A stretch of DNA of 64,000 nt from Planktothricoides raciborskii GIHE-MW2 (lineage in GTDB: Bacteria; Cyanobacteriota; Cyanobacteriia; Cyanobacteriales; Laspinemataceae), in assembly GCF_040564635.1 (NCBI RefSeq), contig NZ_CP159837.1, forward strand, positions 35,801-99,800. Direction: 5' to 3'. A model generated the notes under the pieces. It had not been told where the DNA came from. It was given only the letters and a program-made list of their open reading frames with translations, and made no database searches. Made by a program: the position numbers and the translations under genes. Positions 2,183 to 53,790 of the stretch are shown here, one piece after another. The number at the start of each line of letters is the position of its first letter. Position 1 is the stretch's first letter.

Positions 2183-5100
2183 CTACCAAGGGCTACCAAT
2201 TAGGGTAAATGCTGCCCAATAATAAGGATGAGTTAACTTTTGGTTTTCTGCACTTTGCAAGGATTCAGGTAAGGTATAAGTGCCGCGAGAACCGCGTAAT
2301 TGACCCCCTTCAATTTCCACATTACCGTTAATCATTGATAACTGTGCTTGTCGCATGGCTTCCGCTTTAATTGGGGCAATTCCTAACTGTTTATAAAATT
2401 CAGTCATTAGGCCAAATGTACCCTCATCACTGACATACCAAAGAGAGGCGATCGCAGTTTTCACTCCTGCTTGTACGGCTAACCCAGCAAAGCCTAATTC
2501 TGCTTCTTCATTGCCCACCGCAGTCTGGCAAGCGGACAACACTAACAAATCCACTGCTGGATCGTGTAAGCCTAACTGACGAATATCATTTAGACCCAAC
2601 TTTTGATCCCAAAGTTGAATATATGAATTGCTCAAATCTCCGGGGTTAAATTCTCCGTGAGTGGCCAAATGAACAATAGGATATTGTTTCTCGGCGTGTT
2701 GTTTTTGAATATTTTGCAGGGTAAAGTCCTGATTCAAGAAAGATGCTCCCTGGCGAATTTCTTGGGTAATAATTTTCATTTCGGCGGGCACCGCAGGCAA
2801 GGGATTGAGATTGGTAAATTCACTGGCTCCCATTGCTAAAACTGATGCATTTTGAATATTTTGATAGCGGGTATCCGTCAAGCTGAGAGAAGGCATCATG
2901 CCCACACTATATTTTTGCACCAAAAAACTCTCGCCATCATGGAGGGCGGCGATCGGTAAGGTTCGCAAACCCACATCCATAATAAAGGCAATATTTTGGA
3001 TTTCTTTGGCGTCTAATTCCTCGGTTAATGGGGCAATTAACCATTGATAAAGATTTTGGGCTGGTTCTAAATATTTGGTTTGGCGGCGATATCTTGGCGC
3101 GGTGATATAAGTAATCAAATTATCGGCATTGTCCATGACTTCGCGACGAGTCACCGGCAAGACTTTTCTCACCGGACGACCATCAGCCGTCACTAAGATT
3201 AATTCCAAGGGGTCATTGTCTGTATTTCCGGCCAAAGAAGTGGGGGCAAAATAAACATATAACAAAGCAGGTTTGACCCCAGTTTCTCCTTCAATATTAC
3301 GGATAATATTTTGCGCTTGTGGCAGGCTAACATTGACCTGCTTCGACTCGCCAATGTGGTCGCTAAATGCTTGAGTAAAGCTATTTTCAATTTCCGCTAC
3401 CCCTGGATCGACAATGGCGACTTCTTGAGGACTCGCCAGATTTTCCGGTGTGATTTGCCGGACGTTTTCTTCTTCCTCTTCTTCGGTTTCTGAAGGTGAG
3501 TCTAATTCAGTGGCGATCGCCCCTACTTTTTCTGGTGGCAAAATCGATCGCGGTTCTGGTTGTACTCTTTCTGAAATTGGCACAGAAATCGGCGAATTTT
3601 TTTCCGGTTCCAGTTCTACGGATATGGGTTCTAAAGTGATTGGTGCCACTTCTGGAGTAGCCGCGATCGGCTCTGGTGCCACTTCTGGAGTAGCCGCGAT
3701 CGGCTCTGGTGCCACTTCTGGAGTAGCCGCGATCGGCTCTGGTGCCACTTCTGGAGTAGCCGCGATCGCCTCTGGTGCCACTTCTGGAGTAGCCGCGATC
3801 GCCTCTGGTGCCACTTCTGGAGTAGCCGCGATCTCTTCTGCTCCCCCGCTCCCCGGCTCCTCTGCTCCCCCGTCCGGTTCTGGGTCTAACTCCAACGATA
3901 AGGGCATATCATCCCCTGACGCTGGTGCCACTGGGGTTTCATCCACGGCTGGTTCTTCCACCACAGGCGGTTCTTCCGCAGGCGGTTCTTCCACGGGCGG
4001 TTCTTCCACGGGGGTTTCTGGTTCAGCGGTAATCACCCGAATATTCCCTTGTTCCAGCGGGCCGGGGAACGAGGAACCTAGCGGGATCGTATTATTTGCC
4101 CCAGTGGTAATCACCCCAGCAGTGCCGTTGGTCGTGGGATCGCCCACCACAAAGGGAGTATTTTGACTGCCCCCGTTGTGACTGAGACTCACATTGCCAC
4201 TTCCCCCAGCCCCGGCAGTAGAAATACTGGCAACTTGGCCATTTTGGTCGGTAAAAGTATTATTAGCGCGGAAAACGCCCCCAGTGACAATTTCAACATT
4301 GCCACCGCTGCCTCGTAAACCCCCTTGAGCATTAATAAAGCCAACATCAATAAAATCCTCTGGGTCGAGTAAGACATTCCCGCCATTTCCTACCGTACCG
4401 CTGCTATCAATATCCTCAGTGGTAATACTTGTTAATGCCTGAACGGTAATATCGCCCCCGGTTATCCCCGTAGAGGTTAAATTTCCGGTGGTGACAACTC
4501 CGTTGGGACTATTTACAGCGATCGCACCGCCAGTCCCATTAGGATTAGAACTATCCAAGTTGCCCACCGTCACATCACCAACCGGGTTGGTTAAACTGAT
4601 TAAACCCCCACTGGTTGTAATGTTGACGTTATTAGTAATTAGCTGATTATTGCCGGTTAAAATTACACTAGCACCGGCAGAATTGATATCGCCATTTAAT
4701 TCAATGGTATCCGCAGTGGCTTGTAATCCACTATTAATCAAGCCGGTAACAGTTAAACGATTTAAAGGGGTGAGATTACCCAGAATTCCCCCAAAAGAAA
4801 CGCGACCAGTTCCGGCATTTAACGTCAGCGTCCGGTTGCCATTAATCGTTCCGGTAAATATGATATCCCCAGCCCCCGCGCCAGTATCCAAAGTAAGATC
4901 GTTGTTGAGAATCATATCTCCAGCGATCGCGATCGTTTGGTTGTTGGTACTAATCCCGGCATTTAAGAACAGATTACTGGTGTTAAAATTCACCGTAGCA
5001 TTATCGATCGCAGTAATCGTTCCGTTGACCGTTACTTGCCCTGTTCCTGATTGAATTGTCACCGGATCGCTAAAGCTAATCGCCCCTAAATTTACCATCC

Positions 5101-8100
5101 CAGTTCCATCACTGCGACCAATAGTAATACTGCTAAATCCATTAGATAAATTCGCGATTTCTGCCAGAGAAATGTTAAAGGTTCCGGTTTCACCTCCAAT
5201 TTCAATGGGAGTATTTTGATTAAATGGTTGTAAGATTAAATTGCCTGGACTGGTGAGAGTATTATTTAAGGCAATAGTATCGCCAGTAAAAGTGATATTA
5301 CTGGCGGCATTAATCGCCCCGGTGGTAGAAATGCCGCCATTATTTGCCGTGACATTTAAAAGACCGCCACTGGTTAGGTTATTGTTGAGAGAGATAGAAT
5401 TTCCCGTCAGGGTAATATCTGTCCCCGCTTCAACAATTTCCGTAGAAATATCGCCATTATTTGCCGTGACATTTAAAAGACCGCCACTGGTTAGGTTATT
5501 GTTGAGAGAGATAGAATTTCCCGTGAGGGTAATATCTGTCCCCGCTTCAACAATTTCCGTAGAAATATCGCCATTATTTGCCGTGACATTTAAAAGACCG
5601 CCACTGGTTAGGTTATTGTTGAGAGAGATAGAATTTCCCGTGAGGGTAATATCTGTCCCCGCTTCAACAATTTCCGTAGAAATATCGCCATTATTTGCCG
5701 TGACATTTAAAAGACCGCCACTGGTTAGGTTATTGTTGAGAGAGATAGAATTTCCCGTGAGGGTAATATCTGTCCCCGCTTCAACAATTTCCGTAGAAAT
5801 ATCGCCATTATTTGCCGTGACATTTAAACTACCGCCCACCGTAGAACTGCCTAAATTTACTGCATTAGCACTGGTAATATTAGCATCAGCCCCAGCGCCA
5901 TTAGTATTGACCGTAATTATTCCCGGTGTTGCTAGTTGACTTAAAGTAATATCTGCCCCAATTGCAGTAGTCGTAAAAGTGCTATTTCCCCCAATGGCGA
6001 TCGGGCTATTCCCAGTAATATTGCCATTTGCTGTAATTTCTAAATTACCGGAAATGTTAGCCGTTCCTAAACTAAGAGTTTGGCCGTTATTCACAAACAA
6101 ATTTCCTGTAACATTATTAATATTTATTTGGCTAACATTTGTCTCCAAAGAATTCAACGAATCGCCCACACTTCCCGATGTATTTAAGACTACAGTACCA
6201 TTAGCGGCGATCCTGATATCTGTCCCGGTAAAAGGGCTGGTAATGCTACCAGTATTTAAAGTTAAAGTCCGATTATTACCCAAGGTAATGCCGTCATTAA
6301 ACGACACCGCCCCACCCTGTAAGGTCAGGTCAAAAGTCTGGTTACTTAAATTAACGGGACTGGCAATATTAAGCGCTCCCGTGCCACCCGTGCTACCAAT
6401 TGTCACCCCATTAAATCCACTGATTGACTGAAGTTCTGCTTCGGTTAAATTCAAACCCGGTGACTGGTTAATCCCACCGATTTCAATTGGTGAGTTATCG
6501 ATTATTGGTTGCACAAGTAAGCTGCCATTACCGGATATTGTCCCATTGATATTTAATTCCCCAGCAGTGATTTGTGGGTTGGAATTAACAAAGGTGACGT
6601 TACCGTTATATTCTTGAGTGCCAAGAGTGGTGACATTGCCATTAATACTTGTGTTTTGTCCTAATATGTTAAGACTATTCAGACGGGTATTATTACCAAC
6701 GGCGCCACCAATATTAACATTGCCAGTCCCCGCATTTAGGGTTAAATTGTAACTCCCGTCTATAGTTCCCTGAAAATCAATAGTACCAGATCCACTATTC
6801 AAAGTAGCATCAGCCCCTAAAGTGGTGTTGCCGATAATGCCGATGTTTTGATTGTTAGTAGTAATATCGGCATTTAATGTTGTTGGGCCGATGAGAGTCA
6901 CAGAAGCGTTATCATTTCCCAAAATTTGAAAATTGTTTGTAATCGAACCACCGGGAGACTGAATCGTCACTGGGTCTGAAAATCCTAGACCGGAAGTTGG
7001 CCCATCGATAGTAATGGCACCCGTACCGTCAGCCCGTCCAATAGTAATAGAATTAAAACCGTTTTGAATATTAGCTAATTCTGACTCGGTTAAATATAAA
7101 ATCCCTACTCCAGTACCTCCAGACCCTCCCAGGGAAATATTTTGCCCCACGGTGGTAGGTTGCAGAGTTAGACTGCCCGTACCAGAGATACTACCTACAT
7201 TGTTAATATTAATTTCGTCTGCTGTGAGAGTGAGGGCATTATTTCCAACAATTAAAGGAGCATTTATTTCAATTGACCCCGTTCCACCCTGAATAATTGT
7301 AGTTGTGCTTAAAGTGAGAGAAGGAGCGTTGCCGCTAATTTCAATAAAGTTTGTGGCATCAGTACGACCAATAGTAATCGAGTTAAATCCCGCATTTTGC
7401 AGTAAATTGAACTCGCTATTACCGCTAGAGTTGCTGTCCAGACATAAGAAGCCTGGACTACATCCGGTAGAATTGTTAATATAAATACCCTGATTGCTGT
7501 CCCCTTGCTGAATGACTAAATCTAGTCCGGTTTGAGTGGTGGATATAGTATTGGTATCTAAGTTAATATCATTGGCCGTAAGGGTGACATAATTGCCAAA
7601 TTGAACTGTCGGCGGACTATTAGCCCTTCCTGCTCTGCGTAAGTCAATAAAACCAATTCCCGCATCAATATTTCCATTGACGGTAATGGTGCTGTTGCTG
7701 CCAGTTTCCGCGATGAAATTTCCCCCATTGGTGGTGATATTTCCCAGATTAATTTGATTTCCTGTGCGGGAAGAATTACCCGCTGAAATTGTGATATCTC
7801 CTCCCTGTGTCACGATCGCATCCGCAGGATTCATAGTAAAATCACCGACTCCATTAAAATCAGCATCGGCGATCAAACTCACTGATCCAGCAGCACCCAT
7901 TTGCAGACTCAGGGTATTGTCTGATAAGTCTTCAATAGTGATATTGTCGGCGGCTTCTAAAATAATACTACTATTAGCCCCGATCGCTTCTAATGCCGTT
8001 TCAGAAATAGTGTAATTTGCGCCTGCGGTGAGCGTATCATCGAAAATGACTCCTTCGGGATCGCCAAAAGGTTCACCCGCATTCAATTGGTTATCATTAG

Positions 8101-9520
8101 GCGCACCACTGCCATCAACAATGGTAATATTATCTGGGTCTAATAATAAAGTGCCGGTGCTACCTTGGGGGGCGCTGGTGTCTACCTGACCTCGGAAAAT
8201 TAAATCTTGTTTGCCGGAAACTTCAACAAAGCCACCATTGCCATTTTGACTGCCACCTTTGGCGCTAATTTCTCCATGAAACCGGGTAGTTTCATCAGCC
8301 CAAATAATGACTTGTCCCCCGTCGCCATTTTCTAAAGAATCCACAGAAATCAGCGTATCTTTACTGACGAAAGTTTCTGAAGCGTTGGGGACTTCTCCTT
8401 CGCCGCGATATTCTCCTCCGACTAAGACCACACCGCCATCATCAATCCCACTGGCGTTAATAAGGGCATCGACTAAGGCAACTTTGTCCCCTAATACAGC
8501 GATCGCGCCCCCAGTCCCATTGCCATTCGTGCTGGTATTTGAGACATCAATATTACCGGAAGCCACGGTGACACCGGGATCTGTGGGTATTCTTAGGGTT
8601 GAACCTGTGAGGCTGATGGTGCCGTCATTGTTAACCGTCACGTTGGAAGCATGGGTGATGTGACCCCCAGTGAGTAAGCTGGGCAAGTCTAAGGGCTGAA
8701 AGTTTTGCGGCGGTTGGTTAGGGGAATTGTTGCCCGTGGGTGAGGTGGGAATTTCTAAGCTGAGGAGATGGTTTTCCTGGTTGATGCGAACCAGGTTTTC
8801 TCCCGGTACGGCAGCAATGGTGATATTACCACCGGGAGAGGAAAGGGTGCCTAAGTTGACGACTGTTCCCCCCAAGAGGGTTAGCTTTTGTTCGGGGTTG
8901 AGGCTGAGGTTGCCTTCATTGAGAATAGCCCCCGGTTGGGAGAGGGAAAAGGCAAAGGTGGAGGGTTCGCCCACTAAGGCGCTGTAGTTGTTGCTGCCAA
9001 AGGCGTTGAAGGCTTCTGAGTTAAAGCCAATGTTGGTGGAGGTGGTGGCGGTGAAGTCCCCTAAAACGTTGAGACTGGCGTTGGGGCCAAAAATAATGCC
9101 CGCAGGGTTCATTAAGAATAGGTTGGAGTTGCCCCCGGTGACTTGAATTAAGCCGTTAATAATAGAGGCGTTGCCCCCGGTGACTCTGCCAAGGATGTTG
9201 TTGATTTCTGGAGAGGAGAGAAAGTTGGCGGTCTGTCCCGCGTTGAGGCCAAATTCTTGGAAGGAGTGGAAGAGGTTCGCCCCGTCCCCAGACCGTTGTC
9301 CCCCGGTAATGTTGTAGGTGTTGCCGGTTTGGTTGACTACGGTTCCAGTGTTGTCAGCAGCAGGAATAGGTGCGGTTTGCGCGATCGCATTTTCGCCCAT
9401 AATGCCACAAATTACATTGATTGCCCCCAGGATTCCATAAAATATGACCAAATTTTTAGTCTTCCGAGTTATTAGTTGGGCTTCAGCCTTCCCAGTTTGT
9501 CGCTGTTGATGGTAGTTCAT
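2183..9520 (-). CDS. Giant exoprotein (2445 aa). It has an N-terminal filamentous haemagglutinin/TPS secretion domain, a long beta-helical repeat region, a Pro/Glu/Thr-rich linker and a C-terminal CHAT (caspase-like peptidase) domain.
   Basis: Complete 7338-nt ORF. The N-terminus reads NITGGQRSGDGANLFHSFQEFGLNAGQTANF (TPS-domain signature). The C-terminus reads IVHLATHGEF ... DLLVLSACQTAVG (CHAT His/Cys dyad). Internal exact repeats are present. Confidence 0.9.
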   Translation of the reverse strand: MNYHQQRQTGKAEAQLITRKTKNLVIFYGILGAINVICGIMGENAIAQTAPIPAADNTGTVVNQTGNTYNITGGQRSGDGANLFHSFQEFGLNAGQTANFLSSPEINNILGRVTGGNASIINGLIQVTGGNSNLFLMNPAGIIFGPNASLNVLGDFTATTSTNIGFNSEAFNAFGSNNYSALVGEPSTFAFSLSQPGAILNEGNLSLNPEQKLTLLGGTVVNLGTLSSPGGNITIAAVPGENLVRINQENHLLSLEIPTSPTGNNSPNQPPQNFQPLDLPSLLTGGHITHASNVTVNNDGTISLTGSTLRIPTDPGVTVASGNIDVSNTSTNGNGTGGAIAVLGDKVALVDALINASGIDDGGVVLVGGEYRGEGEVPNASETFVSKDTLISVDSLENGDGGQVIIWADETTRFHGEISAKGGSQNGNGGFVEVSGKQDLIFRGQVDTSAPQGSTGTLLLDPDNITIVDGSGAPNDNQLNAGEPFGDPEGVIFDDTLTAGANYTISETALEAIGANSSIILEAADNITIEDLSDNTLSLQMGAAGSVSLIADADFNGVGDFTMNPADAIVTQGGDITISAGNSSRTGNQINLGNITTNGGNFIAETGSNSTITVNGNIDAGIGFIDLRRAGRANSPPTVQFGNYVTLTANDINLDTNTISTTQTGLDLVIQQGDSNQGIYINNSTGCSPGFLCLDSNSSGNSEFNLLQNAGFNSITIGRTDATNFIEISGNAPSLTLSTTTIIQGGTGSIEINAPLIVGNNALTLTADEININNVGSISGTGSLTLQPTTVGQNISLGGSGGTGVGILYLTESELANIQNGFNSITIGRADGTGAITIDGPTSGLGFSDPVTIQSPGGSITNNFQILGNDNASVTLIGPTTLNADITTNNQNIGIIGNTTLGADATLNSGSGTIDFQGTIDGSYNLTLNAGTGNVNIGGAVGNNTRLNSLNILGQNTSINGNVTTLGTQEYNGNVTFVNSNPQITAGELNINGTISGNGSLLVQPIIDNSPIEIGGINQSPGLNLTEAELQSISGFNGVTIGSTGGTGALNIASPVNLSNQTFDLTLQGGAVSFNDGITLGNNRTLTLNTGSITSPFTGTDIRIAANGTVVLNTSGSVGDSLNSLETNVSQININNVTGNLFVNNGQTLSLGTANISGNLEITANGNITGNSPIAIGGNSTFTTTAIGADITLSQLATPGIITVNTNGAGADANITSANAVNLGSSTVGGSLNVTANNGDISTEIVEAGTDITLTGNSISLNNNLTSGGLLNVTANNGDISTEIVEAGTDITLTGNSISLNNNLTSGGLLNVTANNGDISTEIVEAGTDITLTGNSISLNNNLTSGGLLNVTANNGDISTEIVEAGTDITLTGNSISLNNNLTSGGLLNVTANNGGISTTGAINAASNITFTGDTIALNNTLTSPGNLILQPFNQNTPIEIGGETGTFNISLAEIANLSNGFSSITIGRSDGTGMVNLGAISFSDPVTIQSGTGQVTVNGTITAIDNATVNFNTSNLFLNAGISTNNQTIAIAGDMILNNDLTLDTGAGAGDIIFTGTINGNRTLTLNAGTGRVSFGGILGNLTPLNRLTVTGLINSGLQATADTIELNGDINSAGASVILTGNNQLITNNVNITTSGGLISLTNPVGDVTVGNLDSSNPNGTGGAIAVNSPNGVVTTGNLTSTGITGGDITVQALTSITTEDIDSSGTVGNGGNVLLDPEDFIDVGFINAQGGLRGSGGNVEIVTGGVFRANNTFTDQNGQVASISTAGAGGSGNVSLSHNGGSQNTPFVVGDPTTNGTAGVITTGANNTIPLGSSFPGPLEQGNIRVITAEPETPVEEPPVEEPPAEEPPVVEEPAVDETPVAPASGDDMPLSLELDPEPDGGAEEPGSGGAEEIAATPEVAPEAIAATPEVAPEAIAATPEVAPEPIAATPEVAPEPIAATPEVAPEPIAATPEVAPITLEPISVELEPEKNSPISVPISERVQPEPRSILPPEKVGAIATELDSPSETEEEEEENVRQITPENLASPQEVAIVDPGVAEIENSFTQAFSDHIGESKQVNVSLPQAQNIIRNIEGETGVKPALLYVYFAPTSLAGNTDNDPLELILVTADGRPVRKVLPVTRREVMDNADNLITYITAPRYRRQTKYLEPAQNLYQWLIAPLTEELDAKEIQNIAFIMDVGLRTLPIAALHDGESFLVQKYSVGMMPSLSLTDTRYQNIQNASVLAMGASEFTNLNPLPAVPAEMKIITQEIRQGASFLNQDFTLQNIQKQHAEKQYPIVHLATHGEFNPGDLSNSYIQLWDQKLGLNDIRQLGLHDPAVDLLVLSACQTAVGNEEAELGFAGLAVQAGVKTAIASLWYVSDEGTFGLMTEFYKQLGIAPIKAEAMRQAQLSMINGNVEIEGGQLRGSRGTYTLPESLQSAENQKLTHPYYWAAFTLIGSPW
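3645..3838. repeat. In-frame 33-bp tandem repeat (~6 copies) inside the exoprotein gene. It encodes IAATPEVAPEP units of the linker.
   Basis: The unit ccgcgatcggctctggtgccacttctggagtag is repeated nearly perfectly. Confidence 0.85.
5335..5830. repeat. In-frame 123-bp tandem repeat, four near-perfect copies, inside the exoprotein gene. Each copy is a 41-aa unit LLNVTANNGDISTEIVEAGTDITLTGNSISLNNNLTSGG.
   Basis: Identical 123-bp blocks start near 5337, 5457, 5580 and 5703. Confidence 0.9.
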
Positions 9521-22196: not shown

Positions 22197-24131
22197 TTAT
22201 GTTTCTGCCAAACCCACCCCCTGTTGTTGCAAATAATACGCCACTCTTTCCCGCAATTGATCCACGGTTAAATTTTTTGTCCAATATTCCACTAAACCAT
22301 GACCAAATGCCCAAGCATTCCGGTCAGGAGAGGCAGGATTTTCTAATAACAATGGCCAAATTGCCAGTAATTCAAAATTGACCTGATTATTGTCGTTACT
22401 TAATAACGTAAACAAGTCATAAGCCATTTGTAATTTACCAATTACCATCGGCAACTGTTCAATGGGAATTTTTTCTGCTAATAAATAGGCTAAGGTGGGA
22501 TTTCCGGTAGTTAATGTCGAAATAAATTGCAATACCGGACTTTTTAATAAAGCGGTTAGCCCTTGGGTGGTGGACATTTGAAATGTGTAGCGATCGATGA
22601 TTTTGGCGGCGGCAATGGTACGAGTTTCTAAGTCTCGGAAAAACCGGGCTAACCGTAATTGTTTGACCGGCGCGATCGCCTCTATCAAACTTAAAGATAG
22701 GCTGTCAATATTCCACCCTTGCCGATCGCTTTTCGGGTCAAAACTGACCACCGGCAACACCCGATCGCAGAATTCTCCTAACATTTCCGTGCGATATTCT
22801 GTGGCTTCTCGGATCGATTTTTCCTTCGGGCGATCGCCCCAAACCCAATCATAAGGGGGTTGCCATTCGCGAATTGGACGCAGGCGATCGACCTGAGTGA
22901 CAATTGCGATCGCGGGTAAATCTTGCACCTCTTTTTTAATATCCTTAAGAAAATCCACATCCATTTGCAAAGCGGGATCTAATGCCGGAGTCACCAGTAA
23001 TAATAAATCCGCATTATTAGCATATTCTAATACTTGGTCACGCAAGTCGGATTTATTCACTTGTTCATAACCGGGACTATCCCAAAGAGTCAGAGTTTCT
23101 CCGGTGTCCGTTTGCCAATGGTAACTTTGAATGCGATCGGTACTCGGCAACACATCCACTGCGGCTAATTCTGCCTGAAATATGGTATTAATTAGACTAC
23201 TTTTCCCCGCCCCAGTTCTGCCTACTAATAAAATATTCACCGGCTTTTGCTCCACTTTTTCCGGGGGATCTGCTGCCGCCAAAATTTCTTGTAAAGTCTG
23301 CGTTTTTGCTTTCGGCAAACTAGGAGTAGATACCGCCAAATTTTCCCCTGGAAGTTGGTTGCCTCCGTAGAGTGCGATCGCCTGCCGACACAGGTTTCGC
23401 AGGGCTGCTTCCCGCACCATAAAACTCAAGTTTGCCAATAATTGCTGATTAGCTTGTTCGCTATATTTCTTACTAGCTACTCGCGCTGCCGCTGCTGCTG
23501 GGTTCACCAACCATTGTACCCACCCCCACGCTTGCATTAATTTGCGTGCCGAAGGTTCTAATTTGCGATAAATTTCATAAGCTTGATAAGCTTGCCCCAC
23601 AGTGACTTGATTCAGTACCGGGGATAATTGCTGCATCCACCGATCCATATCATCCACCGTCCCCCGAATTAAACCATAAGCTTGAGGCACATAAATATTC
23701 AGCAACGGGTATTTTACTGTTGGGTGATAAATATGGGCAACTGCTATCACCATGTCTTGACATTCTTGCCAAAAATTTTGCCAATCATCCCATATCGGGC
23801 GATCGCTTTGAGACTCTTTTAATATTTTTTGTAATGCCACTTCTGCTTTTTTGGCAGCATCATCCGCCCCTAGTTTTTGTTTAGTTTCCTCATTGATTAT
23901 TTCTATTTTTTCATTCATAGAAGCGATCGCTGCTTCTACCTCGTCAATTTGCGATCGCGTCCAGCGAACTATAAGCGATCGCCACCCCACTAAAACCAGA
24001 GTGACAACCCCCCAAATCCAATTAATCCCCCATTCGCTAATTTGGGTTCCTGCTGCTACTAGGAGAAACGTAATAATGAGGGCGATCGGGAGGGCTAAAA
24101 CCACCCACTGCCAAAGTTTTAAACGTACCAT
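22197..24131 (-). CDS. Membrane-anchored GTPase (MMR_HSR1/Era-like G domain, N-terminal 2 TM plus coiled coil).
   Basis: 644 aa. G1 is LVGRTGAGKSSLIN, G3 is DSPG, G4 is TQVD. Hydrophobic helices occur at residues ~8-50. Confidence 0.8.
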   Translation of the reverse strand: MVRLKLWQWVVLALPIALIITFLLVAAGTQISEWGINWIWGVVTLVLVGWRSLIVRWTRSQIDEVEAAIASMNEKIEIINEETKQKLGADDAAKKAEVALQKILKESQSDRPIWDDWQNFWQECQDMVIAVAHIYHPTVKYPLLNIYVPQAYGLIRGTVDDMDRWMQQLSPVLNQVTVGQAYQAYEIYRKLEPSARKLMQAWGWVQWLVNPAAAAARVASKKYSEQANQQLLANLSFMVREAALRNLCRQAIALYGGNQLPGENLAVSTPSLPKAKTQTLQEILAAADPPEKVEQKPVNILLVGRTGAGKSSLINTIFQAELAAVDVLPSTDRIQSYHWQTDTGETLTLWDSPGYEQVNKSDLRDQVLEYANNADLLLLVTPALDPALQMDVDFLKDIKKEVQDLPAIAIVTQVDRLRPIREWQPPYDWVWGDRPKEKSIREATEYRTEMLGEFCDRVLPVVSFDPKSDRQGWNIDSLSLSLIEAIAPVKQLRLARFFRDLETRTIAAAKIIDRYTFQMSTTQGLTALLKSPVLQFISTLTTGNPTLAYLLAEKIPIEQLPMVIGKLQMAYDLFTLLSNDNNQVNFELLAIWPLLLENPASPDRNAWAFGHGLVEYWTKNLTVDQLRERVAYYLQQQGVGLAET

Positions 24132-24274
24132 TGTTTAATAAACCGGGTTTGTGTAATAACTTTGCCATTATAACGAATTACGGTTTTTGATTTAGGGGCA
24201 ATATTGTATGATATACTGGATACAAAAGCTACCATATCTGAAGAATACATGATCATTTCGCGTTCGGGTGGAAG

Positions 24275-25423
24275 ATGAATAAATTGGAAAATATATCAGT
24301 AAAGGGTTTTCGCCGTCTTCACAATATTGACCTTGAGATGAGAAATCTCACCGTGATGATTGGCGCGAATGGATCCGGAAAAACTTCTTTTTTAGATGTT
24401 TTTTCCATCCTAGCTGCTTCCGCCAGTGGAAATTTACATCAACAATTACAACTAAAAGGCGGATTTCATGAAATTTTGACCAGAGGGAAAGCGCGAGAAT
24501 TAGAAATTTCCCTGGCAATGAACGTACCAGACAGAGAACCTTTAAAGTATCGTTTAGCCTTATCTCCGAAAGGTTTATCCTATGAAATTAGAGAAGAAAC
24601 TCTAACCCAACAGAGCGACATCTACGCCCCTGAACCTTTTAAATATATTCAATCCGATGGTTTAGACATTAAATATTTTAGTCAGGAAGATTCCCGAATC
24701 TTAAGACCAACTTGGGAACACAATCCCCTGGAAACTTCTCTTTCTCAAGTTCCAAAAATGTATCGCGAACCGGAAAATTTGCGAAAGAGTCTTGCTTCTT
24801 GTACCTATTATGGCGCACTGGATGTTTCCGAAAAAAGTCCGATTCGTTTACCTCAAGCAATGCGCCCTGCAAAATTGCCTGGTGCCAAAGGTGAAGACTT
24901 GGTTTCCTGTCTTTATGACCTGCGAGAAAGCGATCGCGATCGCTTCGAGTTTCTGGAAAATATTCTATCTGCTGCCTTTCCCGATTTTGAGCGATTAAAC
25001 TTTCCTCCGGTTGCCGCTGGAACTATTTCTATGACTTGGACAGATAGAAATTTTTCTCAACCAATTTATCTCCATGAATTATCAGAAGGAACCTTACGTT
25101 TTTTGTGGTTGGCAACGCTTATACAAAGTCAAAATTTAACTACAATCACCTTAATCGATGAACCAGAGGTGAGTTTGCATCCCGACCTTTTAAGACATTT
25201 AGTCTATTTAATGAGAGAAGCGGCAAAACACACACAACTAATCGTAGCTACCCACTCCGATCGACTGATTGGATTTCTAGAACCCCACGAAGTTTTGATT
25301 TGCGATCTCGAAGAAGGAGAAGCAAAAATGAACTGGGCTGATACACTTAATTTAAGTAAATGGTTAGAAGATTACAGCCTTGACCAAGTTTGGGCAATGA
25401 ATATCATGGGAGGTCGTCCATGA
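24275..25423 (+). CDS. ABC-type AAA_21-like ATPase (OLD/AbiL-like ATPase component).
   Basis: 382 aa. Walker A is GANGSGKTSFLD. Walker B and D-loop read ITLIDEPEVSLHPDLLRHL, followed by H-loop ATHSD. Confidence 0.85.
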   Translation: MNKLENISVKGFRRLHNIDLEMRNLTVMIGANGSGKTSFLDVFSILAASASGNLHQQLQLKGGFHEILTRGKARELEISLAMNVPDREPLKYRLALSPKGLSYEIREETLTQQSDIYAPEPFKYIQSDGLDIKYFSQEDSRILRPTWEHNPLETSLSQVPKMYREPENLRKSLASCTYYGALDVSEKSPIRLPQAMRPAKLPGAKGEDLVSCLYDLRESDRDRFEFLENILSAAFPDFERLNFPPVAAGTISMTWTDRNFSQPIYLHELSEGTLRFLWLATLIQSQNLTTITLIDEPEVSLHPDLLRHLVYLMREAAKHTQLIVATHSDRLIGFLEPHEVLICDLEEGEAKMNWADTLNLSKWLEDYSLDQVWAMNIMGGRP

Positions 25424-40442: not shown

Positions 40443-40514
40443 GGCTCAGTAGCTCAGTGGTAGAGCAGGGGACTCATAAGCCCTTGGTCGCGTGTTCAAA
40501 TCACGCCTGAGCCA
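40443..40514 (+). tRNA. tRNA-Met (anticodon CAU; could alternatively be lysidine-modified tRNA-Ile2).
   Basis: Cloverleaf read by hand. The acceptor GGCTCAG/CTGAGCC pairs with a G1-C72 pair, so it is not an initiator. D-arm is GCTC/GAGC. Anticodon loop CTCATAA has CAT at 40475-40477. T-arm is GCGTG/CACGC with TTCAAAT. The discriminator is A and CCA is not encoded. Confidence 0.85.
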
Positions 40515-40627
40515 TTATGAAACCAGGGGATTTGGGCGATTCCCTGGTTTATTATTTGAATCGCAAATGAGTACAAACAGATACAAATAAGTACAAATTT
40601 AGGCAATCATTTAGGTAACGTAAATTT

Positions 40628-41731
40628 TTGCGGCCAATGGCTAAATTAACCATCGAATCAATCAACGCCCAGCTTAAGGCAGCCAACATTAGAGTCAAGA
40701 TTAATACGCTGCCCGGTAAAAATACTTTGTTCCTTCGCGCTACTCTACCGCCCAAGCCTGGGTGTAATCGAGATAGTCCCTATCAGCAGCGCATAGCTCT
40801 AGGGGTGTACAACAATGACGTGGGACTGCGCTATGCCAAAGGAGAAGCAATCAAATTGGCAGGGCTTCTGGATACTTATCAATTTAGTTGGGAAACCTAT
40901 AAGCCGGAACTGTCTAAGCAGCCAAGTCAAAAGACTTGCAAAGACTGGATTCAAGAATTTGAGGACGATTTCTGGGCAAGAGGCGATCGCACTGCTACAA
41001 CCTGGAAAGATTACCGTAAAGTTTTCAAAAAACTTCCTGGCGATAAACCTCTAACTTTTGAATTGGGGAAAGAAATTATTTTGGCTACCGAGGCCAACAC
41101 TAAAAACAGAGAACGAACGACTGACAAGATTGCCAGCTTGTGTGAATTTGCCAAAATTGAGAATGCTAAGGATTTGAGGAAATATCGAGGCATCTATTCT
41201 CAGAAGGGGAAAGACACACCGTTGATTATTCCTTCTGATGAAGAAATTTTTAATTGTTTGTCTGGTTTCCATACCGAACAGTGGCGAAATGCTTTTTGTT
41301 TACAGGCCGCGTTTGGATTACGAAACCATGAAATCTATCATGTCAGGCTCGAAAAGATTGATAAGGGACTGTTAGAGGTGGGCGATCGCACTAAAACCGG
41401 CTACCGCGTTGTGCCCACCTGTCATCCAGACTGGATAGATATGTGGAATATTAAAGAAATTCTGCCGCAAGACCTACCCCAAAGCACTGCCACTGAAAAT
41501 GAGGAGTTAGGGCGATTAGTCTGGAAAGCCTATGACCGAGCCGGTGTTCCATTTCCCCCATATTCGTTAAGACATCGTTTTGCTTGCGATTGCGCTTGCC
41601 AAGGTAAACCACTTGCTCTTGCTGCTAAGGTCATGGGTCATAGTGTAGACGTTCATACAAAAATTTATCACGCATTTTTAGGGGAGAAAGACCTCTTAAA
41701 TGCGTGGTATAGGAAAGATGTTAATTTTTAG
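40628..41731 (+). CDS. int: Tyrosine-type site-specific integrase.
   Basis: 367 aa. The C-terminal catalytic region reads YSLRHRFACDCACQG...MGHSVDVHTKIYH (R...HxxR...Y). Confidence 0.85.
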   Translation: MRPMAKLTIESINAQLKAANIRVKINTLPGKNTLFLRATLPPKPGCNRDSPYQQRIALGVYNNDVGLRYAKGEAIKLAGLLDTYQFSWETYKPELSKQPSQKTCKDWIQEFEDDFWARGDRTATTWKDYRKVFKKLPGDKPLTFELGKEIILATEANTKNRERTTDKIASLCEFAKIENAKDLRKYRGIYSQKGKDTPLIIPSDEEIFNCLSGFHTEQWRNAFCLQAAFGLRNHEIYHVRLEKIDKGLLEVGDRTKTGYRVVPTCHPDWIDMWNIKEILPQDLPQSTATENEELGRLVWKAYDRAGVPFPPYSLRHRFACDCACQGKPLALAAKVMGHSVDVHTKIYHAFLGEKDLLNAWYRKDVNF

Positions 41732-50373: not shown

Positions 50374-51089
50374 GCCCCCCGGCTTGTCTCTCTGACCAAG
50401 ATTTTCGCATCCGTTACCCCGGCTATCCGCCAAAAGGGTGGGGCGATCGCATGAATCCCTTGACCACCCCCGACGGTTGCCAGTGGGAATCTCGTACCCA
50501 AGGCCGGATAAGAGAGTGGCATCAACTATAAAATCTTTGCCCCCTACTTTGGGGGTTTTTTGTTGGGAGCCGAGGCCGGTGGCTTGATATAGCTGTGTTA
50601 CGGTAACTTCCACCAAACGGTGGTAGTGAGGTAGTTCCATTATTGGAATTCCAATAATGCCTGAAAGTGGACAACTTCAAATTCCCTGAGACGGCGGCGT
50701 TTCGGGTGCGAAATACGTTTCAGGATTATCTGAAATAAAGTTCACACTGGATTAATACGGGGATTCCCGTATTGAGGGTGTGCTTAGTCAGCACACCCCT
50801 GGTGGAACTCCGAAGTGAGAATCTACATTAAATCCATTGCCGGGATTTGTAAACGATTTGCTGACGATTTGCTGACGATTTGCTGACGATTATTGTCAGC
50901 AGCTAAAAAGCTTACTACGCAAGGAATCTAGAGAATTACTAGGGTGTTGCTGACATTGCTGACGATTTTCACTGTTTTGTCCGCCGAAAGCACGGTTGGA
51001 TAAATCAGATAGGCAACATTTAGGCTCCGCTTAACTTTAAGCTTTAAAACCCTTATATATCAAGAGTTTAGCAACGTCCCAAGCTTCTT

Positions 51090-51128
51090 ATAAGCCCTTG
51101 GTCGCGTGTTCAAATCACGCCTGAGCCA
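51090..51128 (+). other. attR: 39-bp exact duplicate of the 3' half of tRNA-Met (positions 40476-40514).
   Basis: ATAAGCCCTTGGTCGCGTGTTCAAATCACGCCTGAGCCA is identical at both sites. Confidence 0.9.
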
Positions 51129-51168: not shown

Positions 51169-51331
51169 TCCCGCACCATGCTACGATTTTGTTACGGTTT
51201 TTATACTTTTAAAAAGTGAAACTCCCTATCTGCAAGGCTTAGGGAGATTTTGTTACGATTTTGCTACAATTTTGCTATATTTTGGCTCTAAACGCAGCAA
51301 GCACATCGTCGAATGGCAATAGACTGGCGGC

Positions 51332-53176
51332 TTATTTTCTTTGATTGGTCATCAGTTTATGGGCAAGGTGCTGAGAGAAAAGTGGATGAATGAAGCGATA
51401 AGCAAAATGGTTATAACTCCGCTGACGACCGCTGGGGATTCCTTTAATTTGTTGGAGAAATAAACAGGTTTTGCCATCGTTGAGCAATTGCCGATATTGC
51501 CAAGGAATGCGCCGGTTAAACCAAAGAATTAGATGTAGGGAAAATTGGTGAATTTCTGCGATTCCCCCAAAGGCGATCGCTAATAAAATACCGATGACCA
51601 TACCACCAATGCACAGTTGCCACCCTTGAAAGTTTTTCCCTTGTAATATCCATAGAATCCATAACCAAAATATGCCCATTGGCAGAGTAATTGTGCCGTA
51701 TGGCAGTAAATTTTTTAGCCATTGTTTTGCGGGGCGATCGCCGCCTCTAATTTGGTAAAGTAGCTGTGATTCGGTTGATGAAAATCCTCCGGTAAACAAG
51801 CTTACAAGGGCAAAAATTAACCCACCATTGACGGCAAATAGCAATCCATAAATTAGTCCCGAATCTTTGCCTAAAATTTGCCCAAATATATTCCCGGAAA
51901 TTACGCCACAAATTACCGCAGATACCAGGGTTCCTACTGCGGCTATGATGCAGTTTTGTTGAGTAAAAGAAAAAGCCGGTTTTGGGGGAATTAAATATTG
52001 CCTAAAAATCCCGGCAATGACTCCCATGATGCCTCCCAGACTTGCCCCAAAGACAAATCCAAAGGTGCGATCGAAGATTACCCAAAAAATTACCCCGGCA
52101 ATTCCCCCAGCAATTAACGCCATAATTAAGATACTGAGAATTTTTTCTAACGGGTTTTCTAGCCAGCTATCTTCTAAATGATAAAATTCCGGTTGCTTTT
52201 GGTTAAGAGATTTTTGCGCTAACCAAGAAAGCGATCGAAATATATCTTTTTTTGATAACTTTTCCTCGGTGTGATTATCACTTTTATGCATAATTTTTAG
52301 ACCTGTTCTTACATAAGCATCCCAAAGATAGCTAAGTCTTTCTGACTGATTTTTACCCGCTTGCCATTCTGGGAGATTAATTTCTCTAGCGGCGATAATG
52401 ATTAAATTTAAAAATAGTGGTATTTCGGCAATTTGAGTTAAATTAGGATTTGGGTGAATGCCATTCCATAAATATTCACAGTCACTTTGGACTAAATAAT
52501 GATAAACCGAGTTTAGGGTGAGGGGCTGTAAGTCGATGCAACGATCAATATTAACAATAGATAGCTGAGTTTGCTGCGGGTTTAGTCCCGCACAAATCAC
52601 TAAGCTTCCTGACCAATGATGGCATAAAAAGTGATTTATTTGTTGGATAAATTTATCCGCTGCATGGTCGTCTAGTTCATCTAATCCATCAAATAAAATA
52701 ATCACTTGATCCGGTTTAAGTAAATTTTTGGCCGTTTGCCGATTTAGGTGATATTTTAGTTTGAGCATAGACAGAATCCAAGAGGCGATCGCCGGTTGGT
52801 TATTTTGCCAAGAGGAAATATCCAGTAAAATTGGCAATGGTACACCTGAATTGTTCATTGCCCGGTTGAGCAATTCCTTGGCTAACTGTAAAAGTAACGT
52901 AGTTTTACCCGAACCCTGCACCCCCCGAATCAAAATTTTTTCGGGAATTGACGAATCAACCAAAATTTCGGCAATATTGGCTGATTTTAACAGCGGTGCT
53001 TCTGATTTATTTCCCCGATATCGGTAAATTTTTCCAGGAATATCTAGAGGACAAGGTTTGGTTTTTGGGTCGATATTTCTTTGATAAATTCGCTGATGTA
53101 AAGCTTGGTGAAGTCGCGATTCAACTTCTAGATGAATGGCTTTTAGCAGAATTTCTAGCAGGCGATCGCTGCTCAT
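51332..53176 (-). CDS. NACHT-domain STAND NTPase fused to a C-terminal six-helix transmembrane domain.
   Basis: 614 aa. Walker A is GVQGSGKTTLL. Walker B is VIILFDGLDELDD (the NACHT DGxDE). The C-terminal ~270 aa has six Gly-rich hydrophobic helices. Antisense ORFs 52761-53027 and 52948-53178 are artefacts. Confidence 0.85.
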   Translation of the reverse strand: MSSDRLLEILLKAIHLEVESRLHQALHQRIYQRNIDPKTKPCPLDIPGKIYRYRGNKSEAPLLKSANIAEILVDSSIPEKILIRGVQGSGKTTLLLQLAKELLNRAMNNSGVPLPILLDISSWQNNQPAIASWILSMLKLKYHLNRQTAKNLLKPDQVIILFDGLDELDDHAADKFIQQINHFLCHHWSGSLVICAGLNPQQTQLSIVNIDRCIDLQPLTLNSVYHYLVQSDCEYLWNGIHPNPNLTQIAEIPLFLNLIIIAAREINLPEWQAGKNQSERLSYLWDAYVRTGLKIMHKSDNHTEEKLSKKDIFRSLSWLAQKSLNQKQPEFYHLEDSWLENPLEKILSILIMALIAGGIAGVIFWVIFDRTFGFVFGASLGGIMGVIAGIFRQYLIPPKPAFSFTQQNCIIAAVGTLVSAVICGVISGNIFGQILGKDSGLIYGLLFAVNGGLIFALVSLFTGGFSSTESQLLYQIRGGDRPAKQWLKNLLPYGTITLPMGIFWLWILWILQGKNFQGWQLCIGGMVIGILLAIAFGGIAEIHQFSLHLILWFNRRIPWQYRQLLNDGKTCLFLQQIKGIPSGRQRSYNHFAYRFIHPLFSQHLAHKLMTNQRK

Positions 53177-53299
53177 AATTATTTCTCCAATATAATTTGA
53201 TTAATTTACCTTCATTTTAAAATAACTTGAGCGATCAGGGCAACCTCAAGGGTCAGAAATTGCCCGATTTTTCCAGGGAATAGCAAATTGGGATATCTA

Positions 53300-53640
53300 A
53301 TGGATATAAATAATATAAATAATATAAATATACATATAAATATACCCGTCCTGGCGAAGCATTCGCGGATATACCTCTACGACAAATACAACGGTTTTAT
53401 GCTGTATATAAATATACCCGTCCTGGCGAAGCATTCGCGGATATACCTCTACGACAAATACAATCGTTTTCGTTCCGGTAAGCTTTCGCCATGCCAAAGG
53501 CTATATGCTTTGCCTCTACATATACGCAAATACAACGGTTTTATGCTGTATATAAATATAGTCCGAAGGGCGAAGCATTCGCGGATATATTTCTACGAAA
53601 AATACAATGGTTTTCGGCGCGAATGCTTTGCCCCTACTAC
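53300..53640. repeat. Tandem ~70-bp repeats (3-4 copies), each containing the palindrome GGCGAAGCATTCGCGG and ACAAATACAACGGTTTTATGCTGTATATAAATAT.
   Basis: Direct reading. Track ORFs 53288-53665 and 53297-53497 are artefacts. Confidence 0.85.
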
Positions 53641-53790
53641 ATCTAGGCAAATACAACGATTTTAACGGCAATTGGTTAAATTGCTCGATCAAACGCTATA
53701 ATAAATTATACCAATTTCCTGTAATCCAGAAACAAATCTCTAAGCTTATCAAGCGATCGGGAGGTTTGGGGAGATATAAAAACGAATCCT

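Follow-up and report, generated by a model that had tools for sequence, protein, structure and literature searches.

A NACHT NTPase with a predicted six-helix transmembrane insert in its winged-helix domain, encoded beside a tRNA-Met-integrated element of Planktothricoides raciborskii

The NACHT gene and the predicted transmembrane insert of its product

A gene for a NACHT-type NTPase was analyzed within a stretch of 64,000 nucleotides of the genome of Planktothricoides raciborskii GIHE-MW2 (contig NZ_CP159837.1, positions 35,801 to 99,800), hereafter referred to as the window, from the first letter of which all positions are counted unless a contig is named. The gene is located on the minus strand between a tRNA-Met-integrated element and a divergently transcribed DUF697 GTPase gene, and its product of 614 amino acids (aa) is predicted to carry six transmembrane (TM) helices inside the NACHT module. 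The gene and the segments of its product are as follows.

51332..53176, minus strand: NACHT gene with TM insert, complete coding sequence of 614 aa plus stop, with the ATG at 53176 and the stop codon at 51332-51334 (open reading frame list, homologues, Pfam)
52946..53176, minus strand: region ahead of the nucleotide-binding domain (NBD), residues 1-77, with helix 3-24 and then a poorly modelled linker, without an effector domain
52157..52945, minus strand: NBD, helical domain 1 (HD1) and first half of the winged-helix domain (WHD), residues 78-340, with helix 309-325 and a strand at about 330 (Pfam, Foldseek, family hidden Markov model)
52898..52924, minus strand: Walker A or P-loop, GVQGSGKTT, residues 85-93 (translation)
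52676..52702, minus strand: Walker B with NACHT signature, IILFDGLDE, residues 159-167 (translation)
51518..52156, minus strand: six-helix glycine-zipper TM insert, residues 341-553, three helical hairpins, predicted N-in/C-in with very short outer loops
51335..51517, minus strand: second half of the WHD, residues 554-614, with helix 561-570, beta-hairpin 574-578/591-595, helix 598-613 and the motif AYRFIH(597)PLFSQHLA, the codon of His597 being at 51386-51388

The Pfam profile of the NACHT family (PF05729) matched residues 81-174 with a score of 39.8 bits (gathering score 26.7; E 5.3e-10), and all the remaining P-loop families of Pfam stayed under their cutoffs in this protein. In an alignment of 50 sequences, G88, G90, K91 and T92 of Walker A are invariant, and D163, G164, L165, D166 and E167 of Walker B are invariant or nearly so. 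The stretch ILFD163-G-L-D-E167 fits D[GAS]hDE after Walker B, the NACHT signature as defined by Kibby et al. (bioRxiv 10.1101/2022.07.19.500537). The best Foldseek matches of the full-length model were NLRC4, NOD2, NAIP5 and NLRP3 (E 5e-7 to 1e-5). With the P-loop, this signature, the match to a curated profile and the histidine motif of the WHD (see below), the protein is a NACHT-clade STAND NTPase, and NTPase activity and nucleotide-dependent oligomerization, both expected of the clade, are predicted for it. An earlier reading made from the sequence alone (hereafter the sequence-only reading) had claimed canonical NACHT Walker motifs and the lack of a repeat-type sensor, and it was correct on both points, no such sensor domain being present in the 614-aa protein.

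Residues 1-77 gave no match in Pfam, PADLOC or NCBIfam, and these three collections likewise revealed no adaptor motif of the EAD, death-like or amyloid type there. The AlphaFold confidence (pLDDT) is below 50 across residues 30-66, and L11 and L22 are almost invariant across the family of TM-insert NACHT proteins. Screening for defense systems, as the sequence-only reading had proposed, matched nothing but the NTPase core: PDC-S60 of PADLOC matched residues 79-197 only (111 of 1027 profile positions), and DS8_antiphage of NCBIfam gave 31 bits against a cutoff of 790. Since the matches are confined to this core, the protein, apart from being a bacterial NACHT protein, stands outside every named defense family, and its membership in Avs/AVAST or in other defense STAND families of PADLOC and NCBIfam was rejected for want of a full-length profile match. 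The base composition of the gene (GC 0.397, GC3 0.35) is slightly under the window mean, resembles that of the serpin and Uma2 genes and gives no clear sign of recent transfer.

Six hydrophobic helices were identified by hydropathy and AlphaFold at residues 342-367, 370-390, 406-435, 437-463, 483-512 and 518-553. The segments were picked by the Kyte-Doolittle scale and by a Hessa-type free-energy sum; by this sum, the best 19-mers in the TM segments gave -2.9 to +1.5 kcal/mol, and no 19-mer of residues 1-340 fell below +6.7 kcal/mol. Two independent AlphaFold2 models, one of the full-length protein (pLDDT 75, predicted template-modelling score (pTM) 0.73) and the other of residues 301-614 (pLDDT 81, pTM 0.75), both contain long helices at all six TM segments. 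Because the number of helices is even, the chain is predicted to return to the cytoplasm; the predicted cytoplasmic loops hold eight Lys plus Arg residues, and the outer loops (2-6 residues) about three. Gly accounts for 14.6% of the TM region against 3.5% of the rest of the protein, and a total of 13 glycine-zipper motifs ([GAS]xxxGxxx[GAS]) were counted in the TM region, with zippers running through all six helices. From hydropathy, the Hessa-type sum, the positive-inside charges and the AlphaFold helices, membrane embedding is strongly indicated, though not proven, and the six Gly-rich TM helices of the sequence-only reading are retained. The closest structural neighbors of the bundle are the glycine-zipper membrane proteins Tim17/Tim22/OEP16; its similarity to these, to Tim23 of the same PRAT four-helix bundle type and to NDUFA11 is weak.

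The TM helices had been taken earlier as the C-terminus of the protein. However, the sixth helix is followed by 61 residues (554-614), ending in ...AYRFIHPLFSQHLAHKL, and this segment is kept in all the full-length homologues, in which the sequence IQHxxLRxxLWxxGxIPWNYxRFLDYAxxRxFLxKVGGGYxFIHRLLxEHFA comes straight after a TM block of 181-317 aa. F595 is invariant in the family, and conservation reaches 90% or more for H544, L547, R548, P558, Y593 and H597. A full-family profile (A1) gave P-loop matches only (RFC, dynein, LRRK2) against the Protein Data Bank (PDB) and was uninformative for the WHD, and therefore a TM-deleted profile (A2) was built from ten family members and compared with the PDB. 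Profile A2 aligned to NLRC4 166-372 (NBD-HD1), and a second collinear stretch, qkvgGgYrFiHellrehlak, aligned to NLRC4 433-452 including His443, the latter alignment being weak when taken alone (3.7 bits). His443 of NLRC4 is the WHD histidine that contacts and clamps ADP in the autoinhibited off state. In the AlphaFold models, helix 309-325 and the short strand at about 330 precede the insert, and helix 561-570, the beta-hairpin 574-578/591-595 and helix 598-613 come after it, with a pLDDT of 90-96 for these flanking elements.

The junctions are marked by the motifs FxIExxQPxWL ahead of TM1 and IQHxxLRxxLW after TM6. Among 45 distant homologues, conservation is 0.59 for the NBD and 0.60 for the junction from TM6 to the WHD, and is lowest, at 0.38, in the TM core. 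Since a conserved soluble segment of 61 aa with the WHD histidine motif ends the protein, the TM block is, as modelled, an insert of 213 aa within the WHD of the NACHT module, and not a C-terminal add-on. The architecture consists of NBD-HD1-WHD and the spliced six-TM bundle and nothing else, without helical domain 2 (HD2), repeats or an effector.

The family of TM-insert NACHT proteins

A word-indexed search gave 109 homologues of the protein, among them the full-length protein P0001 with 99% identity and 108 more. A phmmer search with residues 301-614, for which the database was 1.84 billion representatives clustered at 50% identity, gave 212 matches (E<=1e-3), almost all of them placed at the C-terminus of proteins of 590-1100 aa; the Planktothricoides-type subfamily is only one 50%-identity cluster among these representatives. 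In species genomes of GTDB, at least 392 loci were confirmed after scanning with the pattern [LIV][LIV][PL]L[LF]DGLDE, which the window's own ILFDGLDE does not fit. The best 80 of the at least 392 loci belong mostly to filamentous cyanobacteria (Microcoleus, Nostoc, Scytonema, Oscillatoria, Moorena and others), and a few to Chlorobaculum, Anaerolineales and Syntrophobacteraceae. The TM-insert NACHT proteins, with at least 212 clusters (50% identity) and at least 392 GTDB loci, are a sizeable family, which the literature mentions only in passing.

The region ahead of Walker A is variable in the family, being either short (81-137 aa, as in the window protein) or furnished with one to five extra TM helices. 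Other N-termini of relatives are TIR/SEFIR, CHAT, Pkinase, trypsin-like, HTH-XRE, FHA, DUF4062 and BTAD, as well as PF19954, PF19960 and PF19964, which we take, from their accession numbers alone, to be of the EAD type. Because the split of the WHD is kept across more than 200 relatives while the N-termini vary, the TM insert appears to occupy the constant input position of the classical scheme of effector, nucleotide-binding oligomerization domain (NOD) and sensor, and not that of the usual effector. The unusual order of an NTPase followed by a membrane effector, as put forward in the sequence-only reading, was not upheld, for the TM block lies in the WHD and relatives carry classical N-terminal effectors.

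This architecture has already been catalogued. Kibby et al. (bioRxiv 10.1101/2022.07.19.500537), in item 4 of the Supplementary Discussion, list 'TM regions' as one sensor class of the bacterial NACHT (bNACHT) proteins, with multiple TM helices that are C-terminal to the NACHT module or inserted in it. The window protein has six helices between the halves of its WHD, and, since the architecture is catalogued, it is a further member of this TM-insert bNACHT class and not a new kind of system. The class as described there and the family described here are alike in being found mostly in multicellular cyanobacteria and in having variable N-terminal effectors, but the window protein carries no N-terminal effector, and the GLIxGLI low-complexity repeats of most relatives are absent from its six TM helices. 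The searched text of the same paper gives a bioinformatic description only of the class and does not state the insertion point in the WHD before the His motif.

Along the lines of the sequence-only reading, it might be argued that the TM region acts solely as an effector that disrupts the membrane, while the signal is sensed elsewhere, by the short N-terminus or by the NACHT module, and pore formation leads to abortive infection. Indeed, the window protein carries no other effector domain, glycine zippers like those of its helices typify oligomeric assemblies in membranes, and the resemblance of the bundle to Tim17/Tim22/OEP16, weak as it is, agrees with such a role. Elsewhere in the family, however, the TM insert is found together with effectors at the N-terminus (TIR, CHAT, trypsin, kinase) or with HTH outputs, beside which a second constant effector would be redundant; the bundle interrupts the regulatory WHD and is joined to it by conserved junctions, which is an input-like position; and the other 400 residues offer no candidate sensor domain. 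We thus regard a purely effector-type TM region as unlikely, and prefer an input role of the insert.

The genes next to family members were then surveyed. As about 14 near-identical loci of Microcoleus had outweighed the rest in an earlier clustering of neighbors, redundancy was removed at 60% identity, leaving 79 immediate (+/-1) genes at 46 non-redundant loci. These 79 include seven CHAT, three caspase, four NACHT and four Ser/Thr kinase genes; TPR genes are also recurrent, and an SMC gene is syntenic in five Nostocales loci. No conserved operon partner was found among the 79 neighbors. PADLOC matches of neighbors to mad3, LmuB, AriA and PD-T4-6 were rejected as evidence of defense because they trace to the syntenic chromosomal SMC gene of Nostocales and to Ser/Thr kinases. 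In several cyanobacterial relatives a CHAT gene is located directly upstream on the same strand (L017, 6807-7766; L024, 6693-7580; L051, 4504-7116), that of L024 carrying the EAD1 adaptor domain, and this arrangement suggests split effector/NACHT pairs.

By analogy with NAIP/NLRC4 and the sensor/helper pairs of plants, the window protein could be a sensor-only NOD-like receptor (NLR) that detects a membrane signal and depends on a helper, either co-oligomerizing with an effector-bearing paralogue or recruiting a CHAT or caspase protein from a gene elsewhere. Several cyanobacterial genomes do contain more than one family member (L012/L013 of Oscillatoria sp. HE10JO, L025/L030 of Symploca), and NACHT genes make up 4/79 and CHAT or caspase genes 10/79 of the immediate neighbors, some of the CHAT genes being directly upstream on the same strand. 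Neither the window nor the syntenic contigs, however, hold an adjacent partner gene, and the adaptor motifs sought in residues 1-77 (EAD, death-like, amyloid) were not detected. Dependence on a helper therefore seems quite unlikely.

The flanking element and the divergence of the NACHT alleles

The features that surround the NACHT gene are as follows.

40443..40514, plus strand: tRNA-Met (CAU) gene (ARAGORN), of which the 3' 37 nt, 40478-40514, are attL
51092..51128, plus strand: attR, exact 37-bp copy of the 3' end of tRNA-Met (repeat search), 204 bp from the NACHT stop codon
40515..51091, no strand assigned: 10.6-kb integrated element (Pfam scans), missing from contigs L001 and L002
53177..53790, no strand assigned: divergent intergenic region between the NACHT gene and the DUF697 GTPase gene, holding a 72-bp tandem array at 53334-53614

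By chance, no exact repeat of 37 bp is expected. In the conspecific metagenomic contigs L001 and L002 the site is empty, window position 40515 being joined to 51087 at 99-100% identity, and in both, the tRNA and the DUF697 GTPase flank the NACHT gene, with an identity of 99% in aa. The 10.6-kb element is a genuine recent insertion, and the NACHT gene belongs to the resident flank. The GTPase and a DUF3352 protein encoded in the flank are identical to P. raciborskii entries of NCBI. The NACHT gene as cargo of the element was rejected, because it lies outside attL/attR and the empty-site strains carry it at the same position. The tRNA-Met-integrated element of the sequence-only reading is thus real, and the distance of about 200 bp between gene and attR was also given correctly, but it is the stop codon, not the start, that faces attR. 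The argument drawn from this neighborhood, that of a hotspot where defense genes accumulate, is weak, for the gene is outside the element and the immediate neighbors of family members are not enriched for classical defense systems.

The element carries genes for a tyrosine integrase (40628-41731), a DUF3987 protein (primase/helicase-associated), an actin-like ParM/ALP protein, a Cro/C1 HTH protein and a protein of 457 aa that has no Pfam match and shows, in its translation, the P-loop-like motif GGTGDGKT. No capsid or defense genes were recognized in its 10.6 kb, and the element looks like a plasmid-like integrative element. Just within its attR side, an 11-bp repeat, ACGATTTGCTG, is present in 3.5 copies at 50853-50891, and a similar repeat, GATTTTGCTAC, in 2.9 copies at 51246-51277, just outside attR, in a flank shared with the empty-site strain. 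These repeats could be arm-type sites of the integrase or the remnant of an earlier element.

The intergenic region 53177..53790 presumably holds the promoter of the NACHT gene; a scan for promoters and terminators around the gene performed no better than on shuffled sequence. Much of this region is filled by the 72-bp tandem array (3.9 copies, 68% matches), which is preceded by ATATAA-type microrepeats at 53304-53344, and partial copies of the array align in L001, L005 and L087. Beyond the GTPase gene, an Eco29kI-type restriction endonuclease and a C5 methylase are encoded ahead of the RNase T gene in L001 (5776-7829) and L002, the methylase alone in L005 (6535-7764) and L087 (1050-2279), and neither in the window (junction 55352/55413). 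This restriction-modification (R-M) cassette, two genes away from that for the NACHT protein, is variable in presence and absence, so that the locus shows some plasticity; the cassette hints at a variable locus, as does a Uma2-family gene on the far side of the tRNA.

Farther away in the window, positions 2183-9520 of the minus strand encode a protein of 2445 aa with an N-terminal two-partner secretion (TPS) domain and a C-terminal CHAT (caspase-like) domain, which, judging from these domains, is probably secreted as a filamentous exoprotein and has a protease-like tip. At 22197-25423, the gene for a 644-aa dynamin/MMR_HSR1-type GTPase (minus strand) adjoins a divergent gene for an AAA_21 ATPase (plus strand). 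AAA_21 ATPases are present in several defense systems.

The NACHT allele at the same position in L005 (GCA_011390955.1) is 63% identical to the window gene in aa and 74% in DNA, whereas the adjacent GTPase is 99.4% identical in aa and 96% in DNA between the two. Nonsynonymous (dN) and synonymous (dS) divergence and their ratio (omega) were estimated by the Nei-Gojobori method for the window versus L005.

NACHT gene: dN 0.245, dS 0.54, omega 0.45
GTPase: dN 0.004, dS 0.128, omega 0.03
RNase T: dN 0.005, dS 0.078, omega 0.06
ADH: dN 0.006, dS 0.037, omega 0.17

The dN of the NACHT gene is 40-60 times that of the neighboring genes, and more alleles are known at 56% and 50% identity. In the allele of L087 (JGI metagenome 3300081801), an in-frame stop is located at the boundary between WHD and TM insert (...KHHQP, the stop, then FADLANIWLEKPL..., at about 5555-5560 of that contig), which leaves a soluble NACHT part of 363 aa and, in the same frame, a part of 257 aa with the TM segment and the second WHD half; the stop could be a sequencing error or mark a nonsense allele that exists in nature. 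When close alleles are compared, conservation is highest in the TM insert (73% versus 43-65%; dN 0.16) and lowest in the N-terminal 77 residues, with 43% identity to P0002. Conservation of the TM block in close alleles would fit the effector discussed above rather than a sensor.

Because divergent alleles stand beside a near-identical flank, because one allele carries a stop, and because CHAT and caspase neighbors recur, a conflict-type gene is favored over a housekeeping gene; it would be a dispensable and fast-evolving gene of the kind described for multicellular bacteria. The result that was to speak against a defense role, namely a conserved core gene in a housekeeping context, was not obtained: the identities of 63% and 99.4%, the omega of 0.45 against 0.03-0.17, the stop in L087 and the TIR, CHAT and caspase associations of relatives all argue in the other direction.

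A non-immune switch, i.e., a housekeeping or stress regulator that reports, for example, the state of the envelope or thylakoid membrane, nevertheless has points in its favor. The gene is chromosomal and keeps its place beside the DUF697 GTPase in several Planktothricoides genomes; HTH, kinase and FHA outputs of some relatives are typical of signal transduction; the SMC neighbor common to the five Nostocales loci suggests vertical inheritance; and no classical defense neighborhood was found among the immediate neighbors. Weighed against these are the dN and omega given above, the nonsense allele, the many relatives with TIR, CHAT or trypsin fusions and the restriction of the Planktothricoides-type subfamily to a single 50%-identity cluster, and such a regulator appears very unlikely.

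The same divergence brings to mind allorecognition or kin discrimination, in which divergent alleles of a membrane NLR would mark self and non-self filaments in a manner analogous to the fungal HET NACHT proteins. The alleles are very old and divergent at one syntenic locus with near-identical flanks (dS 0.54 versus 0.04-0.13), and a protein predicted to be located in the membrane of a filamentous multicellular host would suit this role. Cell fusion or contact-dependent recognition, however, lacks support in the lineage, the outer loops comprise just 2-6 residues, and no polymorphic partner gene was seen, all of which makes this role most improbable. The reading of the gene as a conflict-type membrane NLR remains the preferred one.

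A possible membrane-gated NACHT switch

Compared with the animal NLRs (NLRC4, NOD2, NLRP1/3/9), the window protein lacks HD2, the leucine-rich-repeat (LRR) sensor, CARD and PYD; its WHD is interrupted by the 213-aa TM bundle, and it is predicted to be an integral membrane protein. With the KAP P-loop NTPases it shares a STAND/AAA+-related P-loop NTPase and TM helices inside the NTPase module. KAP NTPases have their TM segments inserted within the P-loop domain itself, but the P-loop domain of the window protein is intact, and the insert comes after HD1, in the WHD. Membership in KAP, a family of P-loop NTPases reportedly treated by Aravind et al. in 2004, was rejected on the grounds of the uninterrupted NBD and of a PF07693 (KAP_NTPase) score of 16.9 bits against a cutoff of 20. 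The plant resistosomes of ZAR1 and the helper NLRs share, by analogy and not by homology, the idea that NLR oligomerization itself makes a membrane-perturbing assembly. They insert an N-terminal coiled-coil helix only after activation, whereas the helices of the window protein are predicted to be embedded constitutively and are placed in the WHD.

The activation of NLRs requires that the WHD swings away from the NBD. In the window protein, the TM bundle would enter and leave the WHD via two junctions that are conserved like the NBD, and its conformation may be passed on to the WHD through the continuous helix of TM6 and the junction (518-553, IQHxxLR). If the packing of the bundle or its surroundings changed, the WHD would be moved off the NBD; candidate triggers are a ligand within the membrane, a membrane protein of a phage, a change in lipids, or loss of membrane integrity or potential. 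Release of the WHD would allow ADP/ATP exchange and oligomerization of NACHT. In relatives, oligomerization would activate the N-terminal TIR, CHAT/caspase-like, trypsin, kinase or HTH output by proximity; in the effector-less window protein, the most likely output would be a clustering of the glycine-zipper bundles that permeabilizes or perturbs the membrane, leading to abortive infection or programmed cell death in the filamentous host.

The gene most likely couples a membrane signal to a cell-defense or cell-death response. The full scheme, that of a membrane-embedded bNACHT switch in which a signal from the TM bundle gates NACHT and the output, in this protein, is bundle clustering, membrane perturbation and abortive infection or cell death, is proposed tentatively, our confidence in it being a little short of even. 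Several observations weigh against it. The conservation of the TM insert in close alleles is not what would be expected of a fast-evolving pathogen sensor; since the outer loops span only 2-6 residues, the protein would have no site for a periplasmic ligand; the defense models of PADLOC and NCBIfam match nothing beyond the NTPase core; classical defense systems are not enriched among the immediate neighbors of family members; and no experimental study of any TM-insert bNACHT was found in the literature searched. The pore or perturbation output, moreover, is purely something that we infer. The abortive-infection role first suggested from the sequence is thus kept in one part, a conflict- or defense-type role being the most reasonable reading, and its membrane-disrupting part is a possible output.

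The bundle may also serve as sensor and effector at once. The protein would then be a self-contained, effector-less membrane NLR, a prokaryotic counterpart of a resistosome in one polypeptide, in which nucleotide-driven oligomerization turns the constitutively embedded bundles into a channel or lesion, with ancient divergent alleles maintained at one chromosomal locus. We consider this form unlikely, and the membrane-gated switch proposed above is the one adopted here.

What the analysis adds for this family is the insertion point in the WHD, predicted to be directly before the ADP-clamping histidine motif, together with two junctions as conserved as the P-loop domain and hyper-divergent syntenic alleles. 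Current concepts would stay unchanged unless the self-contained pore reading proves true. The resulting coupling model offers a concrete and testable way for a membrane signal to gate an NLR switch. As the window protein is a minimal version of the family, with NBD-HD1-WHD and the TM bundle, it would be a convenient construct for asking whether NLR oligomerization alone can act on a membrane, and the extreme divergence of alleles at a fixed locus may be a useful population-genetic marker of conflict.

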